Assembly: GCA_019056805.1 (NCBI GenBank) | Contig: DXJG01000010.1 | Span: 30,001-62,000 of the forward strand | Reading direction: 5' to 3' | DNA length: 32,000 nt | Origin: Candidatus Baldrarchaeota archaeon | GTDB lineage: Archaea; Asgardarchaeota; Baldrarchaeia; Baldrarchaeales; DXJG01 | Shown: positions 1-9,276 of the stretch, piece by piece | Layout of the letters: each line of letters starts with the position of its first letter | Numbering within the stretch: the first letter of the stretch is position 1 | Made by a program: the position numbers and the translations under genes | The notes under the pieces: generated by a model | Told to the model about the DNA's origin: nothing | Seen by the model: the letters and a program-made list of their open reading frames with translations, nothing else | Database searches by the model: none

Positions 1-1080
1 AAAGACTTCTGGAATACATTCAAATACCTCCTAAACTACGCAGATCAAAGAAAACCAGATCTATTTCTAATATCAGGAGACCTATACGACAAAGTTAACC
101 CCAGAAACCCACCGAGAACACAAATCCTAAAATATTTCAGGCATCTGCACAACAAAGGAATAAAAATCTTCCTAATAGGAGGACACCACGACACTCCACG
201 CTCAATTGAGGAAGGAGCTTCGCCTCTAGACGAACTCGCCGCCTCAGGATACGTAACATACCTCCCAGGAATAAACAAACCAGCCGTACAACACGTAAAA
301 ATAAAAGACCTAGACATCTGCATATCCGGCCTAACCTACAACTTCAACCTAAACCCGGGAGAAGACCCCTTAGAAAAAACAAAACCGAAAACAGAAGGCG
401 ACATCAACATACTAATGCTACACTACACAATACAAGGATTCACACCAACCTATATGACAAACGAACCAACAGTAAAAACCTCAAACATACCAAACGAAAT
501 AAACTACGTAGCAGCAGGACATCTACACGAACACAAAGAAAAACAACGAGGAAAAACCCTCATTGCATACCCTGGAAGCACAGAAAGAAGAAGTTTCCTA
601 GAAGAAAAAACAGAGAAAAAAGGCTTCCTATGGATAGAACTAAACCAAGAAAAAACAGTAAACAAAGAATTTATCGAAGTACCTACGAGACCAATGAAAA
701 CCCTAACCTACAAAATCACACCAAACACAAAAAACCCAACAACAGAAATAATCACCTACGCCTTCCAACATAAAAACCCAGAACTAATTTTAAGACTACA
801 AATAACAGGAAAAGTACCCCTAAACATCCTAACACAATACCAAAGAAACGAAATACTAAGAAAACTCCTCGACCACTTCTTCTACATAGTAATAGACGAC
901 AGAGACCTCATATACAAGGCAGAGAAATTCGAAACAATAGAAAGGTTAACGCCTCTCAAAGCCTTCACAGACTACATGAACCAACTAATACAAAAAGAAA
1001 AAGACCCCCAACGAAAAAGAATACTCGAACTAGCAAAAGAAATAGGCATAGAAAAACTTGAAGAGGCAGGAGCATGGTAG
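1..1080 (+). CDS. mre11: Mre11/SbcD-family metallophosphoesterase DNA nuclease, 5'-partial
   Basis: Frame 1 is open from base 1 (KDFWNTFKYLL...), so the track ORF at 415 is internal. Motifs: ISGDLYD, IGGHHD (GNHD position), LMLHYT, AAGHLH, AYPGS. Overlaps the SMC-like ATPase start. Confidence 0.92.
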   Translation, partial: KDFWNTFKYLLNYADQRKPDLFLISGDLYDKVNPRNPPRTQILKYFRHLHNKGIKIFLIGGHHDTPRSIEEGASPLDELAASGYVTYLPGINKPAVQHVKIKDLDICISGLTYNFNLNPGEDPLEKTKPKTEGDINILMLHYTIQGFTPTYMTNEPTVKTSNIPNEINYVAAGHLHEHKEKQRGKTLIAYPGSTERRSFLEEKTEKKGFLWIELNQEKTVNKEFIEVPTRPMKTLTYKITPNTKNPTTEIITYAFQHKNPELILRLQITGKVPLNILTQYQRNEILRKLLDHFFYIVIDDRDLIYKAEKFETIERLTPLKAFTDYMNQLIQKEKDPQRKRILELAKEIGIEKLEEAGAW

Positions 1081-3467
1081 TCTTAAACCGTCTAGAAGCT
1101 CAAAACTTCAGAAAACTAAACCTAACACTAGACTTCCCAGAAGGAATGCTAATAATAAAAGGACCAAATGAAGCGGGAAAATCAACAATCCTAGAAGCAA
1201 TACTTTATGCCCTATTCGGAAAACTAATGCGAGGAACAAAAGAACTAGCCATAAACCACCAATCAAACATCGCAAAAATAAAACTAACATTCACAATAAA
1301 CAACCAACAATACCTAGTCCAAAGAATCATAAAAAGAAACGGAACACAAGCAAAAATCTGGAAAATAACCCCAAACGGACTAGAACCACAAGCATTAACA
1401 ATACAAGAAACAAACAAATTCATAAAAGACCTACTGGGAGGCCTATCCTTCAACGAAATCCTAGTAACAAACATAGTAGCACAAAAAGAACTAAACAAAC
1501 TCACAGAACTAAAAGGACAAAACAGAGAAAAAATAATAAACGCCCTTCTAGGCCTCGACAGCTACAACAAAGCAATAGAAAAAATAACAGAAGACAGAAG
1601 AAACAAAAAACACGAACTAGAAACAAAAACAGAAAAACTTAACCAAATAACCAAAAGACTAGAAGCATATAGAAGAGATGTAGAAGATCTGAAAAGTAAG
1701 CAACAAAAACTAAAAGAAAACCAAGAAAAACTCGAAAAGAAAACCAAAGAATTTGAAGAAAAACATCCCGTATATCTCAAACTAAAAGAATATAGAGAAG
1801 CTCTAAACAAAAAACGCCAATTAGAAGCTGAACTAAAAGGAATAGAAAACATGATAAAACAACTTCAACAAAACCTACAAAACCTAGAAAAACAAACAAC
1901 AGAAAAACAACAAACACTTAACAAAACAAAAGAAATACTGACACAACAAAACGAACAACTCAACAAAGAAAAACTAAAATTAGAAGAATACAAAAACTTG
2001 GAAAAAACAGAAGAAATACTGATAAAAGTAGAAAGGAGATTTAGAGATCTTCAAGAACTGGGAAATAGGAAAAGAGAAATTTTATATCAATTAGAAGGGC
2101 TAAATGAAGATCTAAGAAAACTAAAAGAAAAACTTGAATCAAAAGAAACTAAAGAAACCTTAAGAAAAGAAAAAGAATTAAAAGAAAAACTTGGAAAAAC
2201 AAAAATATCACCCCTAATACTCATCCTCCTACTTTTACCATCACTCCTAGCCATATTATCACCCCTACTCATCACAATAGGACCTGTAGCTGTAATTCTC
2301 TACATTTTCTATATTACAAGAACTAGGAATTCTTTTCAACAAGAATTGATCCAAATAAAAGACAAAGTAATAGAACTAAAGGGTCTACCCGCCCTAATCC
2401 AACAAAACGAAAAACAAATACATGAAATAAAGCAAAACATAGCAATCATGGAAAAACAAGAAGAAAGCCTAAAACAAGAAATAAAAACAGTCCTACTTAA
2501 CTTAGAAGAAAAATATAAGCCGAAAACATGGACTAACCTCGAAGAACTATTACAAAAAACTAAAGAAAACTTAAGACAACTACAAAAAGAAAAAATAGCA
2601 ACAGAAACAAAAATAACCATACTAACGAACAAGATCCAAATGCTAAAAACTCAAATCGAAGAACTAGAAAATGGTATTGAAAAACTAAAGGAAAAAAGAG
2701 AAGAAACAACAAAAAGTATAGAAGAAAAGAACAACGAACGGTTAGAAATTCAACAACAATTAGATTCAATAAATCTACCAAAATTACCGGGAGACATTCA
2801 ATACAGCGAAGAACTATTTGAGAAAACAGAGCAAGAAATTACAGATCTTAAAGGAGAAATAAATACTCTAAAAGGTATCATCGAAGAGCTTCAAAGAAAT
2901 ATCGGGGAGCTTAAGAGAAGAGTAGAAGAGAATAAAAGCGTAGAGCAAGAATATAAGCAAGCAAAACAAGAAGTAGAAGAACTTGAAACACTTATTGAAG
3001 CACAAACAACAGCAATAGAAAAATTGAAAGAAACAGCAAGAAGCATGCGAGAAAAATTTTTGCCAGCGATAGAAACAAACATGAGCCAAATAATCTCCCA
3101 AATAACAGGAGGAACCTATAAAGCAGTAAGACTAGACGAAAACTACAACATCGAAGTCCTAGACTCTAACGCAGGAAAATTCATACCAAAAGACATATAC
3201 AGCGGAGGAACCGTAGACCAGTTTCTCCTAGCAATGAGACTAGCCTTCATACTATCCCTACTACCACAAACAAAACAAACATACCCCCGATTCCTATTCC
3301 TAGACGAACCCCTAGCATCATCAGACCAAAACAGAAGAAACAACATAATAAACCTACTAACAAAAACACTAAGCGAAGAATTCAAACAAATAATACTAAT
3401 AACACACCTAAACATAAACCCACCAAACACAAAAACAATAACAATAAACCAAGGAAAAACAGCTTGA
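1074..3467 (+). CDS. rad50: Rad50/SbcC-family (YhaN/SbcE-like) SMC ATPase with central hydrophobic segment and no zinc hook
   Basis: Walker A GPNEAGKST, Q-loop VAQKE, long coiled coils, signature YSGGTVDQFLLAMRLA, Walker B LFLDEP, H-loop LITH. No Cys in 797 aa. Confidence 0.9.
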   Translation: MVVLNRLEAQNFRKLNLTLDFPEGMLIIKGPNEAGKSTILEAILYALFGKLMRGTKELAINHQSNIAKIKLTFTINNQQYLVQRIIKRNGTQAKIWKITPNGLEPQALTIQETNKFIKDLLGGLSFNEILVTNIVAQKELNKLTELKGQNREKIINALLGLDSYNKAIEKITEDRRNKKHELETKTEKLNQITKRLEAYRRDVEDLKSKQQKLKENQEKLEKKTKEFEEKHPVYLKLKEYREALNKKRQLEAELKGIENMIKQLQQNLQNLEKQTTEKQQTLNKTKEILTQQNEQLNKEKLKLEEYKNLEKTEEILIKVERRFRDLQELGNRKREILYQLEGLNEDLRKLKEKLESKETKETLRKEKELKEKLGKTKISPLILILLLLPSLLAILSPLLITIGPVAVILYIFYITRTRNSFQQELIQIKDKVIELKGLPALIQQNEKQIHEIKQNIAIMEKQEESLKQEIKTVLLNLEEKYKPKTWTNLEELLQKTKENLRQLQKEKIATETKITILTNKIQMLKTQIEELENGIEKLKEKREETTKSIEEKNNERLEIQQQLDSINLPKLPGDIQYSEELFEKTEQEITDLKGEINTLKGIIEELQRNIGELKRRVEENKSVEQEYKQAKQEVEELETLIEAQTTAIEKLKETARSMREKFLPAIETNMSQIISQITGGTYKAVRLDENYNIEVLDSNAGKFIPKDIYSGGTVDQFLLAMRLAFILSLLPQTKQTYPRFLFLDEPLASSDQNRRNNIINLLTKTLSEEFKQIILITHLNINPPNTKTITINQGKTA

Positions 3468-3618: not shown

Positions 3619-3837
3619 TCAAGCGCCAATTTCCCGTGAAATCAATTTAGCTATTTGTTTAAGCAATTTTTCACGAGCATTAGAAATCTCCACCCCAACC
3701 AATTTACCACCCTCATCATACTCAACCCTAACTCCTTCATCAACCTCCTCAGAATCAACAGCAACACCTTTTCCAAACGAGATATAAAGAATATCCGACT
3801 CTTCATCATACCAAATCTTCACTTTACCCTTACCCAT
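3619..3837 (-). CDS. DUF2283-family putative antitoxin
   Basis: MGKGKVKIWYDEESDILYISF...VRVEYDEGGKLVGVEI matches the DUF2283 pattern. The internal ATG at 3837 is Met67 of track ORF 3619..4035. Confidence 0.75.
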   Translation of the reverse strand: MGKGKVKIWYDEESDILYISFGKGVAVDSEEVDEGVRVEYDEGGKLVGVEISNAREKLLKQIAKLISREIGA

Positions 3838-4049
3838 CTCCCAAAACCCACCCTTTCTTTCAATTTCCCTATCAATTCTCCTACAAGGATAAACAGTAAC
3901 AACCCTAATAACATTATCCCCCCTAACATAAACAACCACCAAATTAGTTTTAACACCCTCTACTCCAACTTCAGAAACAGCTACAAAAGCCCTAGACAAA
4001 AGATCATAAAAAACAAACCTAGGATTAACAAGCACATTCTTTCAATTGC
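3838..4049 (-). pseudogene. DUF4258-like toxin remnant, in frame with the DUF2283 gene
   Basis: VLVNPRFVFYD...LVVVYVRGDNVIRVVTVYP resembles DUF4258. The N-terminal motif AIERM (4035-4049) is in another frame and the usual intervening helix is missing. Confidence 0.5.
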
Positions 4050-5381: not shown

Positions 5382-5612
5382 TCAAGTAAATGACGTCTGC
5401 GATGCTTCCTCCGACTTAACCTCTTCCCCAATACTCTCACTAACACTACCTGACGCTTTCTTCGCTTCATGACAACGACATGCCTTCAAAAGCAAAGCTT
5501 TCACCAAATCACCAAAAGTAAGCTTAACCCCTCTCATAGCATGCTCATACTTCAACTTCAACAAAAGCTTGTAAGTCTCCTCATCCACCTTAATACTTTT
5601 CAACCTTACCAC
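5382..5612 (-). CDS. ribbon-helix-helix (CopG/VapB-like) DNA-binding protein
   Basis: KSIKVDEETYKLLLKLK...LTFGDLVKALL fits the beta-helix-helix pattern. Confidence 0.65.
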   Translation of the reverse strand: MVRLKSIKVDEETYKLLLKLKYEHAMRGVKLTFGDLVKALLLKACRCHEAKKASGSVSESIGEEVKSEEASQTSFT

Positions 5613-5730
5613 CAGTACAAAAGTAGAAAATAGCTAATATATAAAATTAACCATATACTCTATTAGGGGCTGTAAACGTTTAGAAGTTTTCAAACTTATC
5701 TAAGTCTTCAAAACCGTTTCTCTTCACCTA

Positions 5731-5738
5731 GCGCGCGC
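5731..5738. repeat. GCGCGCGC octamer, copy 1 (within the palindrome TAGCGCGCGCTA)
   Basis: Read directly: 5721 tcttcaccta gcgcgcgcta. Confidence 0.95.
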
Positions 5739-5893
5739 TATCTAAATACACATGTATCGGCACAGCACCCTTCAACACAAAATCCTCAGGTATACTTACA
5801 TCAATTGTTAGCGTGCCAACCATGATTGGCCAATCGTTTACAACCTCAATATTATAGTAGAACTGACCTGGATTCGTTGCAACAAGCTTATAG

Positions 5894-5904
5894 CCCCCCC
5901 CCCC
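5894..5904 (-). repeat. G11 homopolymer (C11 on + strand) at a frameshift
   Basis: 5891 tagccccccc ccccga. A run of 9 or 12 G would restore the frame. Confidence 0.9.
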
Positions 5905-6601
5905 GACCTATCCTTTGCAAAGACGACGTCGAAGTATGTTATTGGATTAAATTCGCTGTCAGTTAGATACGAGTTAACTTTGAGACTAACCAAGATAACC
6001 GTTACAGAATTCGGCGTTTCTTCATTACCTGCAACATTAACACTATAATATTCAATGGTGTAGTTTCCGTCTGGGCCTTCAAGCTTGAAGGGTCCAACAT
6101 ACTCAGTCCAGTTGCCACCATTAATACGATAGTAGGTATGTGCAACACCTGAAACATTGGCTACTCCTAGAACATCGTCGCTTGCTGTAAGCGTGAACTC
6201 CGTAGCAGAAGTAACATAGATATTACCTGCTTCATCAACGCAGTGGGTTCCAATAGTCAAATTGGGTTTTGGAGGAGTCTTATCAATCTTTATTACCTCA
6301 CACTCCGTTGCTTCCACGTTCCCTGCATTATCTGTTGAATTGTAGTAAACCGTAATTATTCCCTCAGTTGTGATAGTAAACGGCTCCGTATAAGTTATCC
6401 AAGTGACGCCATCAAAACTATACGCCGTTTCAGCTACACCCGAAATATCATCCGTCGCCGATAAAGTAACGGTCACGTCCGAAACATACCAGCCTTCAAA
6501 CCCTAGCGTGCCATTTAAACTAATCGTGGTCTCAGGAGGAGTCGTATCAGCAGGTTTAGCCCAGCCACTCCTCTCCGTAAACGGATAGTAGTCATAATCT
6601 G

Positions 6602-6609
6602 GCGCGCGC
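6602..6609. repeat. GCGCGCGC octamer, copy 2
   Basis: Read directly: 6601 ggcgcgcgca. Confidence 0.95.
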
Positions 6610-7143
6610 ATTGCGGACAATAAATCTTGTCTTCAACTGTAGAAGTTACCGGTTGCACTTTTTTATCAGAGCCCCAAAAAACACCAAGTAAAGCCCCATA
6701 TATCAATGGAACAATAAATGAACCGACAATTGATCCAACCGTCTCATCTCCAACACCCGAAGCAAAGATAAGAACAATCCAGCCAAGTATTGAGTAGACA
6801 ATGGCAGTGAGGTAACGTGACTTAATAGGAAATATATAGCATAAAATATCGCATAGACGAGTCCAATAATCGTACTGCCAAGAATAAGGATAACATACAC
6901 GACTACAAAAATACTACCGAATATAATGATCTCAAGTCCTCCAGATCCTCCACCAGACGTTGCAAAACCACCAAAAATATAAGAAATAACTGCTCCCAGA
7001 CCTGCACCTAATCTCCCAAAAACCGCCCCCAAAACAATAACGATGAAAACCGTTAACAACGCAAAAATAAAACCAAAAACAACACCCACAAATGCACCAG
7101 CTCTCATTCCCCTTGTAAGATAAAGCGACATTTCACTCACCAA
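6602..7143 (-). pseudogene. multi-pass membrane protein with truncated C-terminal zinc ribbon
   Basis: Hydrophobic ORF 7143-6703. After a frameshift near 6830 it continues FPIKSRYLTAIVYSILGW...LIYGALLGVFWG...KIYCPQC and is cut at GCGCGCGC before the second CxxC. Confidence 0.65.
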
Positions 7144-7249
7144 GCTTTAAAACAACTCTTATTCAAATCTTTCAAAATTTTAAATTAATAGTAAAATCTC
7201 AACCTTTTAAAATGATCGTATAAACCATCACAGTATCCTTAAAGTATTG

Positions 7250-7519
7250 TTAAAATATTCCTCGATAAGCTCTTCTTCGGTGGCGAACATAATAAATAAC
7301 TACGATTTTCGCCTTAGTATCCACTTGGTAAATAACTCTGTAATCCCCGACCCTAATTCGATAAATTCGCTCAACACCCCTAAGCTTACGACAATCCGGC
7401 GGAAAAGGATTTACTGAAAGCGATTCAACAACCTCAATAATCCTTAAAACATGCTTCGGCTCAATACTCTCCAAATCCTTCTCAGCCGATCTCTTCCACA
7501 AAATTTTATAAGAGCCCAC
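7250..7519 (-). CDS. relE: RelE/ParE-family toxin
   Basis: YKILWKRSAEKDL...KLRG...YRIRVGDYRVIY...HRRRAY. Confidence 0.9.
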   Translation of the reverse strand: MGSYKILWKRSAEKDLESIEPKHVLRIIEVVESLSVNPFPPDCRKLRGVERIYRIRVGDYRVIYQVDTKAKIVVIYYVRHRRRAYRGIF

Positions 7520-7706
7520 GACTCCTCAACCTTTTCTTAACCTCTTCAAAAGACACCGTAGGTTCATCTCGACGCTCAGCAACCACAGCCAAATCATGAA
7601 GATCCTCCAAAAGATCCTCAAACTCATCAATAGGAATAATAACCGCAACTTTTCCCCCCTTCTCATCCACAATATACTGCCTCTGAACCTTCTTCAAAAA
7701 CACCAC
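7506..7706 (-). CDS. cognate antitoxin (Phd/RelB-like)
   Basis: KVAVIIPIDEFEDLLEDLHD...VSFEEVKKRL; acidic, upstream of and overlapping relE. Confidence 0.8.
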   Translation of the reverse strand: MVFLKKVQRQYIVDEKGGKVAVIIPIDEFEDLLEDLHDLAVVAERRDEPTVSFEEVKKRLRSRGLL

Positions 7707-8041
7707 CCCAACAACCTATAAAGAGAACCTAATAAACTTCTCCAAACCACACCAAATAAACCTTTCCACTACCAACCACACCAACAAAAAGTAAGCCCAC
7801 ATCCAACTTAACAACAACAGCAGGTATCCCCACTCTACTATCACTTTCTTCATTAACATTAGAATAAAATTCTTTGCTTGTTTTCTTGGCTTAACTGCCT
7901 ATGCTACTTAGTAAATACAAGTAAAATTTTCTGAAAATTCTAAAAGAAAAAGAGGATATTAGTTAAGTTAGAAGATCATTGTTCATCATCTTATGAACGC
8001 ACTCATACTTCTCAAATGTACAAACCTACCTCACTCGAAAA

Positions 8042-8300
8042 TCACTCATAACCTTTAGAATAAAGTATTGCCGCTCTAGCAAGATCGAAAGCTATATCCC
8101 TCAAAGCCGCCGAACGACTAGAAACATCTTCAATACTTTTAGCAATTTTTATTGCTTCCTCGAACATTTTCTCTGCCTTTTCACGTTCCCCATTCTTAAA
8201 AAGCTCAAAAGCAATAGACTTCAAAGCCTTCACACGAAAATTCCCATCCATAATGCTCCTAGCTATTTCAACAGCTTCTTCGAATCTTCCAGCCTTGACA
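8042..8300 (-). pseudogene. TPR-like helical-repeat protein remnant
   Basis: Two repeats, FEEAVEIARSI...RVKALKSIA and FEEAIKIAKSI...RSAALRDIA. The track N-terminus overlaps the start of a + strand gene, so the true 5' end appears lost. Confidence 0.55.
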
Positions 8301-8324
8301 ATTTCACAAACAATAAAAAATAAG

Positions 8325-8899
8325 ATGATAATAATGGCAAAACCTTCCATTCACCTATTCATGGTTCTTGGAAGTATCATCTCCATAGTTTTCGGAGTAT
8401 TAACAAGCTTCTCCCAGGCTTAGGCTATCTTAAAAGCACCATCCACGCCGAAACAATCGTGACCATCGACCACCTACCAACCAAATTTCAACCCTACCCA
8501 TACACCTACAGCCCACTCATAATAAGCTTCGCAGGCATCCTAACCCTAATAGCATCAATTAAACGCGGGGAAAGAGAACCCATCCTCTGCCTACTAGCAA
8601 CTACCCTAGACTCCCTAGGAATATTCTCCTCCCTATTCGAAATAGGAATCGAAGTTCTCACATATAGAGGAGTTGCAACATTTACAATCTATTTTCCCTG
8701 GATAGCATACCTAACAATGCTTCTCGGATTCCTAATAATATTTGTAAGCATCATAGTTAGGTTTCGAGGATCCACCCTAACTCTCCTAGCCATCCCACTA
8801 CTCCTACCATTAATAATCCCCACAATCTCCCTCTACATCTACATTATCCCCGAACTTCAAATCACAACGGCCACAATAATAAATGAAAGCGCGCGCTAA
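8325..8899 (+). pseudogene. membrane protein, frameshifted near 8414 and ending at GCGCGCGC
   Basis: MIIMAKPSIHLFMVLGSIISIVFG... (8325-8422) shifts into PGLGYLKST...TIDHLP (track ORF 8459..8899). About four hydrophobic segments; ends INES-AR* on agc gcg cgc taa. Confidence 0.55.
8889..8896. repeat. GCGCGCGC octamer, copy 3 (a shorter GCGCGC follows at 8937-8942)
   Basis: Read directly: 8881 aaatgaaagc gcgcgctaac. Confidence 0.95.
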
Positions 8900-8958
8900 C
8901 ATACACTAAACAATAGCTCTATTTAACAAACAAGTGGCGCGCACCTAAACAACTTGCA

Positions 8959-9276
8959 TTACCCATCTGCCTTAGGTCTTAAGTCTTCCCCACACTCAGG
9001 ACAGAAATTTACATTAGAGGGGATGCGGGCTTTGCAACTTGGACAAATCGCAAGAAGAGACTCAGATACTTTAGGCGTTATAGGTGTAGGCTCCAGAGAA
9101 ACTTTCTTAGGTGAAGGTGCAGAAACCTTCTTCGACGAAGATGTAGCTAACCCCATGACAATAAATAAGATACTAAGAACAACGATACCTATTGCAGCCG
9201 GGTGTTGTAATCGATTATATGTCCAAAAACCGAATACGAGTAAAAAAATTCCAAAAACCACTTGTCCACGATCCAT
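8959..9276 (-). CDS. 2-TM membrane protein with C-terminal zinc ribbon
   Basis: Two N-terminal hydrophobic helices; CPSC...FCPECG. Confidence 0.8.
   Translation of the reverse strand: MDRGQVVFGIFLLVFGFWTYNRLQHPAAIGIVVLSILFIVMGLATSSSKKVSAPSPKKVSLEPTPITPKVSESLLAICPSCKARIPSNVNFCPECGEDLRPKADG

Follow-up and report, generated by a model that had tools for sequence, protein, structure and literature searches.

The octamer GCGCGCGC, that is (GC)4, was found to mark real points of gene breakage and joining in the genome of an uncultured Asgard archaeon, far beyond what chance would give. Our study concerned one stretch of this genome (the window; 32,000 nucleotides, C18:30001-62000 of the source genome G000, which has 1,922,513 bases in 18 contigs and 35.5% GC). 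The octamer was present in the window at 5731-5738, 6602-6609, and 8889-8896, with zero further copies, as had been noted in a preliminary description of this DNA. We consider it somewhat more probable than even (about 0.55) that the octamers are a filler of fixed sequence, (GC)4, which illegitimate end joining leaves behind. The organism was from hydrothermal sediment and its best protein matches were Asgard; related contigs were derived from Guaymas Basin sediment and hydrothermal-vent metagenomes. The coordinates of the features are given in Table 1.

Gene boundaries at the octamers

Both parents of the join were traced at 8889. The DNA homology of the membrane-protein gene M to the related contigs L074 and L078 (83%) stopped at 8888, and the metagenome contig L101 aligned at 83% from 8897 onward, the first base past the octamer. 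The uncut parents read gaaa|atct on the left (L074, L078) and ggtg|taac on the right (L101); these are different loci, and GCGCGCGC was contained in neither. The homologues of gene M are 262-264 amino acids (aa) long and run on as ..NE|NLSSLII.., 76 residues beyond the point at which the window has ..NE|SAR*; this agrees with the preliminary description, in which this gene was said to be cut at 8889 (ESAR*). The missing 3' part of gene M was absent from the genome. In L101 (reverse complement, 3196-3213), a perfect hairpin with an 8-bp stem and a 2-nt loop (caccttcc ga ggaaggtg) adjoined the point of the 8889 octamer.

The piece of a surface-protein gene between the first two octamers was 863 bp long, corresponded to residues 694-970 of the 1145-aa homologue P0029, and filled the space between them precisely. 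The amino acid identity was 80% to residues 694-920 of P0029 and 71% to residues 622-851 of P0039 (1070 aa); the match to P0029 extended to about residue 970 when read past the poly-C frameshift. At the DNA level (76% identity), homology was found to L091 over 5737-6602 and to L092 over 5741-6600, starting and stopping at the two octamers with an overlap of 0-2 nt. The homologues, ranging between 1070 and 1145 aa, contain 693 residues ahead of the piece and about 175 after it. The two earlier claims on this fragment were thus borne out: the join at 6602 leads into the middle of the surface gene (the octamer is where DNA and protein homology sets in, with residue 694 of 1145), and the fragment ends at 5731 (DSAR*), where the homology stops as ..HVYLD|SAR* and the homologue goes on. 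The remaining parts of the surface-protein gene were found nowhere in the genome. A poly-C tract of 12 C would give a single open frame from 6620 to 5729 across the fragment, and the join at 6602 makes an in-frame ATG (ATG CGC GCG CCA..).

On the other side of octamer 2, the multi-pass membrane protein ending in CPQC gave a LITAF-like zinc-ribbon match, which was sub-threshold (E 0.003) and covered the first knuckle only. No usable homologue was obtained in two large protein searches, and the truncation of this protein at the 6602 octamer is plausible. The frameshift near 6835 was covered without difference by four assemblies and that near 8415, in gene M, by the assemblies of the source run (X1) and of another sample from the same study (X2); the two membrane genes are pseudogenes rather than sequencing errors. 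No paralogues of the three broken genes were found in the genome.

An uncut relative could be aligned at seven break points (six gene-side flanks and the right flank of 8889), and GCGC or (GC)n was present at 0/7. Since the uncut relatives are devoid of GCGC at the break points, GCGCGCGC is new at the join and is not the cut site. The preliminary description had proposed a sequence-specific process that breaks and rejoins DNA at (GC)4; the joins proved real, and the breakage at such sites was not supported. Named there as a possible refutation were intact homologues in which the octamer is a natural internal or terminal feature; none was found in this genus, and this favours the finding.

Table 1. 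Features in and around the octamer cluster (positions are those of the window)
Feature	Position	Strand	Remarks
Small gene S	5382-5612		310 nt from gene M in L074, L078
GCGCGCGC octamer 1	5731..5738	.	Inside palindrome TAGCGCGCGCTA; joins 70 nt without traced origin (5661-5730) to the 3' cut end of the surface fragment
Surface-gene fragment	5739..6601	-	NosD/beta-helix and Ig-like surface protein; internal piece, both ends cut
Poly-C tract	5895..5905	.	11 C; frameshifts the surface fragment; one more C in the Logan contig of X1, 11 in that of X3
GCGCGCGC octamer 2	6602..6609	.	5' cut end of the surface fragment meets the end of the membrane pseudogene (..YCPQCAR)
Orphan multi-pass membrane protein	6610..7143	-	Frameshift near 6835; half zinc knuckle (CPQC) at the octamer
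ParE toxin/RelB antitoxin pair	7250..7706	-	Shuffled module, 87% identical to G001:C274
TPR gene	8042..8350	-	5' end replaced by the upstream region of gene M; join without octamer
Membrane-protein gene M	8334..8888	+	Frameshift near 8415; cut after codon ..NE
GCGCGCGC octamer 3	8889..8896	.	Left flank matches L074/L078 to 8888; right flank matches L101 from 8897
3' flank of zinc-ribbon gene	8897..8958	.	Colinear with L101
Membrane-anchored zinc-ribbon protein, intact	8959..9276	-	87% identical to the L101 counterpart

Recovery of the joins in independent assemblies

The Logan contigs of four runs (X1, X2, and X3 and X5 from other studies) were compared with the window; the comparison was of contigs only and did not address rare variants. 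The join at 5731 was bridged identically by contigs of X2 and X3, that at 6602 by contigs of X2, X3, and X5, and that at 8889 by contigs of X2 and X5. The sole variant in the compared contigs was the one extra C in the poly-C tract, in the independent assembly of X1. The source is a metagenome-assembled genome and the joins connect unrelated sequences, as would be the case if an assembly or library chimera had created them, the main alternative of the preliminary description. This explanation is rejected, and its probability is negligible, because all three joins are crossed identically by contigs of other samples, one of them from the source's own study and the rest from two others. In addition, 8 bases are too short for misleading an assembler, and the motif is also present in complete single-contig genomes.

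Frequency and exactness of the octamer

Genome-wide, 6 copies of GCGCGCGC were found where Markov models of order 1-3 gave an expectation of 0.25-0.8, and none of 100 dinucleotide-preserving shuffles of the window contained it. Five of the six copies were the 10-mer AGCGCGCGCT (expected at most 0.1), and three of the six were found inside 3.2 kb (P = 1.8e-4). Runs of alternating GC in the genome numbered 930, 166, 26, 5, and 6 at lengths of 4, 5, 6, 7, and 8, respectively, with zero longer runs, and the single-mismatch variants of GCGCGCGC were not enriched (50 observed, 73 expected). Given the peak of run lengths at 8, the absence of longer runs, and the lack of a halo of one-off variants, GCGCGCGC is an exact word.

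No octamer was found within an intact gene (0/6). In the comparison set, 85% of random positions and 16/19 (84%) of the (GC)3 hexamers fell within open frames that were 100 aa or longer; the hexamer is ordinary as to gene placement and the octamer is not. The frequency of GCGCGC was likewise ordinary genome-wide (31 overlapping or 25 non-overlapping matches against 17-35 expected). The GCGCGC that had been reported at 8937 was confirmed at 8937-8942; it is contained in a 7-nt insertion relative to L101, which has no GCGCGC at all, the flanks being otherwise colinear. GCGC was mildly under-represented in the genome (ratio 0.81), and its avoidance is weak and unspecific, CGCG and GGCC being under-represented to the same degree.

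Around 51 A(GC)4T sites from 30 genomes, no conserved sequence was found beyond the 10-mer. The half-sites gave the consensus (GC)4-T-a, with A at the second position in 16/24 genus half-sites, which leads to TAGCGCGCGCTA-type palindromes. A..T flanks were found at 5/6 octamers of the genome; at 8889 both are ancestral flank bases, and elsewhere the A is not ancestral. The SAR* endings were not enriched over all Asgard sites (25/102 orientations, about chance).

Further copies in the genome and in other Asgard archaea

At C9:510305, an octamer embedded in a 16-nt palindrome (CTTAGCGCGCGCTAAG) interrupts the native gene for tyrosyl-tRNA synthetase, of which the C-terminal 196 aa are left (Pfam positions 143-292 of 292). 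The whole synthetase was found at the syntenic place in the sister genome G001 (373 aa) and in G004 of the same order (378 aa), and the homology to both ends 1-3 nt from the motif. The native 5' half was absent from the genome. In its place, a 3.2-kb replacement (C9:510302-513500; L002, L093) contained a divergent, intact synthetase in the opposite orientation, 46% identical to that of G001, and synteny was restored beyond it; no close donor of the foreign synthetase was found among 400 Asgard genomes.

The octamer at C11:15337 adjoins a decayed metallophosphoesterase fragment, and that at C9:136040 is located 6 nt beyond an EVE-domain gene with an in-frame stop. This gene (C9:135533-136033; L001 994-1494) contained one such stop, and its neighbour gene, of 445+ aa, had no Pfam match. 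In G001:C196, an 80-nt gene fragment, 95% identical to an ATPase gene of G000, terminates at the motif, and in G002:C20 the last 8 codons of the aldehyde:ferredoxin oxidoreductase gene were swapped for SAR*. The four genomes of the genus contained 6/6/5/3 copies of GCGCGCGC against 0/1/1/0 of CGCGCGCG, and A..T flanks were present on 12/20 genus copies.

The complete Asgard genome G015 (2.81 Mb) contained 41 octamers, 17 of them A(GC)4T, and 8 of the latter were within 54 kb. In an 11-kb stretch, 5/5 copies fell in the gaps that separate conserved modules, which two related genomes contain at scattered places. Copies in G015 flank single genes (MFS transporter, flavin reductase) and a 118-nt piece, and they cut a dispersed repeat of about 45 nt at differing positions. 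This repeat (..CGAAAGACTC..GTATTTGAGTC..; L036 1721-1756, 3333-3368, 8400-8435, 10346-10381) has an internal inverted repeat, is located downstream of single-gene modules, and has many short copies in two related genomes.

In Odin-like and some other genomes, the count of GCGCGCGC was about that of CGCGCGCG. A(GC)4T was found in frame within intact housekeeping domains, including a luciferase-like one, in L028, L044, L045 (G005), L042, L048, and L049; in G005 (1.4 Mb), A..T flanks were present on 4/6 octamers.

Surroundings of the octamers

Gene M keeps its native place next to gene S, the arrangement seen in L074/L078, and relative to these contigs the window contained extra mosaic DNA between S and M (5661-8293). 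The mosaic consists of the 70 bases without traced origin, the surface fragment, the membrane pseudogene, the ParE/RelB pair, and the TPR gene. Between 8067-8888 of the window and 5959-7024 of L074, the order of TPR and M was circularly permuted, with an 18-nt overlap at 8294-8311, as would be expected at a tandem duplication junction or from a circular intermediate. The DUF2283 gene and the ParE/RelB modules (window 3628-4039 and 7247-7772) were 87-90% identical to G001:C274 (L071), where their order differs, and the 55-nt stretch 7247-7301 was repeated in the same contig at 95% identity.

The genes around the octamers include an SbcC-like ATPase, DUF2283, MazE/PIN, an ABC ATPase, and a nucleotidyltransferase, and the region is a toxin-antitoxin/defence island. 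At 1-3467 the window contained a weak metallophosphoesterase (SbcD-like) gene and a gene for a 797-aa SbcC/Rad50-like ATPase; 2.3 kb separate them from the cluster of octamers. The GC content ranged between 31 and 43% per kb, and the GC skew flipped its sign near 13 kb. The window contained zero tRNA genes and zero Rfam families.

Discussion

Under the end-joining reading, a break would be followed by the joining of two unrelated ends, whether by deletion, by replacement, or by capture of a stray piece of DNA, and a fixed self-complementary (GC)4 filler would stay at the join, usually between A and T. The joining would be illegitimate (non-homologous) end joining in which a defined GC unit is added or ligated, and the island in the window has probably accumulated several such events. 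A wider proposal, which we put forward tentatively and at a little less than even odds, is that some archaea, here Asgard archaea, may have an end-joining or fragment-capture route that inserts a self-complementary (GC)4 linker at every illegitimate join. Literature searches on the word in archaea and on Asgard mobile elements (aloposons, Atabeyarchaeia elements) returned no description of GCGCGCGC.

Several observations weigh against the end-joining reading. Joins without an octamer were found in the same 3 kb, at TPR|M (about 8294-8311) and at the module borders 7247/7772; a GC motif was also lacking where the synthetase replacement ends on the right. The word is not a seam in every lineage, because in other Asgard lineages the 10-mer is located within housekeeping domains that are intact (Hef, archaeosine TGT, RsmB, PmbA, and a PALP enzyme). 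The preference for A..T flanks has no explanation under a filler model. Alleles without the octamer or with alternative joints were not seen in the contigs of the four runs, the comparison being confined to contigs. No enzyme or template supplying a fixed (GC)4 was found, and we know of none. The uncut reference relatives are 70-95% identical to the source, and the direct ancestor is not among them.

The octamer could instead be a short palindromic target that is duplicated upon insertion at a staggered cut, hot-spot insertions building arrays of octamer, insert, and octamer. Identical octamers flanking the 863-bp fragment, the motif-flanked single genes and 118-nt piece of G015, and the clustering of copies would be accounted for in this way; however, single octamers cut native genes in place (the synthetase, gene M, and the oxidoreductase of G002) where the uncut relatives contain no target, gene M remains at its native locus beside gene S, and no integrase or transposase gene is nearby, which makes target duplication unlikely. 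It is quite improbable that a GCGC-specific nuclease with a 4-nt stagger, followed by fill-in and blunt joining (GCGC+GCGC), or a (GC)n fragile site was responsible. Such a nuclease predicts exactly 8 bases and no longer runs, GCGC m4C methylation has been reported in related Asgard genomes (PMC11529989), and GCGC is mildly under-represented here; against this, all seven alignable flanks are free of GCGC at the break point, CGCG and GGCC are equally under-represented, and (GC)3 sites are not linked to breaks. The fill-in of a staggered GCGC cut, offered in the preliminary description, is therefore not supported by the seven aligned break points.

The same description had listed recombinase or transposon scars. 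Transposition and site-specific recombination are disfavoured because conservation is limited to about 12 nt at most, there are no terminal repeats (none, inverted or otherwise, in the window) or recombinase genes, and the lost parts of the genes have not moved elsewhere but are absent from the genome. Against a transposon or insertion sequence, no repeats longer than the 8-14 nt palindrome were found, no transposase domain was nearby, and the flanks were non-contiguous in relatives; against a recombination site (integron attC, Xer dif, or integrase att), the 51 sites had only the 10-mer in common, and no recombinase was found in the window. The half-site consensus would agree with a footprint or terminal stub of a cut-and-paste element with a TA target and GC-rich ends, excised with a flanking deletion. 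We regard such a stub as very improbable, since a full-length element with ends of this kind was not found, the length of the stub would need to be exactly 8 nt in every case, and the flanks are non-contiguous in relatives. Biased substitution or repair, as proposed for HIP1, or chance, the seams being junk DNA that tolerates the word, would suit the Odin-like and other genomes, which hold the 10-mer inside intact domains and have octamer counts near those of CGCGCGCG; yet the base-exact match to homology boundaries at every evaluable site, the missing near-match halo, and the clustering (P = 1.8e-4) leave it scarcely any likelihood. Two structural candidates were also rejected. Octamer pairs would form an 8-bp perfect helix without bulges and not a bulge-helix-bulge splicing structure, and the removal of 5739-6609 gives only ..CPQCAR*. 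In the case of snap-back or P-nucleotide palindromes, the core is constant here and not derived from the flanks.

Double-strand-break joining outside homologous recombination is poorly understood in Asgard archaea. If the end-joining reading is true, it points to an undescribed activity of DNA repair or recombination among the closest archaeal relatives of eukaryotes, and GCGCGCGC, as the product of an undescribed enzyme activity, would allow recent deletions, replacements, and captures of DNA to be read from the sequence. Annotators would gain a tag to date and map gene loss, replacement, and DNA capture in uncultured archaea, for example the in-place replacement of the tyrosyl-tRNA synthetase by a foreign copy, and many SAR* pseudo-C-termini would be accounted for. 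Should the word instead be a target that insertion duplicates, GCGCGCGC would be the sign of a new type of cassette-capturing system.

Among the known systems, the target-site or repeat duplications of transposons, casposons, and CRISPR repeats and the attC cassettes of integrons are alike in their identical short flanks and hot-spot arrays; they differ from the present case, in which no integrase and no attC-like structure was found and single copies cut native genes without a target. The REP/BIME sequences with their RAYT transposases are similarly short intergenic palindromes tied to rearrangements, but REPs are imperfect hairpins of 20-40 nt with conserved heads and many diverged copies, whereas here the likeness between copies is limited to 8-12 nt, and neither a hairpin loop nor diverged copies are present. 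HIP1 (GCGATCGC) of cyanobacteria is also a palindromic, GC-rich octamer that greatly exceeds its expected count; it has been observed where deletions end, and the literature links it to methyltransferases. HIP1 occurs in thousands of copies per genome, mostly in genes and in frame, whereas GCGCGCGC has 3-6 copies per genus genome and none in an intact gene; with 6 copies in the present genome and 0 in intact genes, an iterated palindrome of the HIP1 type was rejected. The fillers, or N-nucleotides, of end joining (TdT, Pol mu, the LigD polymerase domain, and the templated inserts of Pol theta) are alike in that a few extra bases, foreign to both flanks, stand exactly at joins of non-contiguous DNA, overlapping the flanks by 0-2 nt. 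To our knowledge Ku/LigD are missing from most archaea, and no search for them was made in this genome. Extra bases absent from both parental flanks were found at 8889, as in such fillers. The known end-joining fillers vary between joins or copy nearby DNA, whereas here the same exact 8-mer was found at every join, at independent joins and in several genomes.

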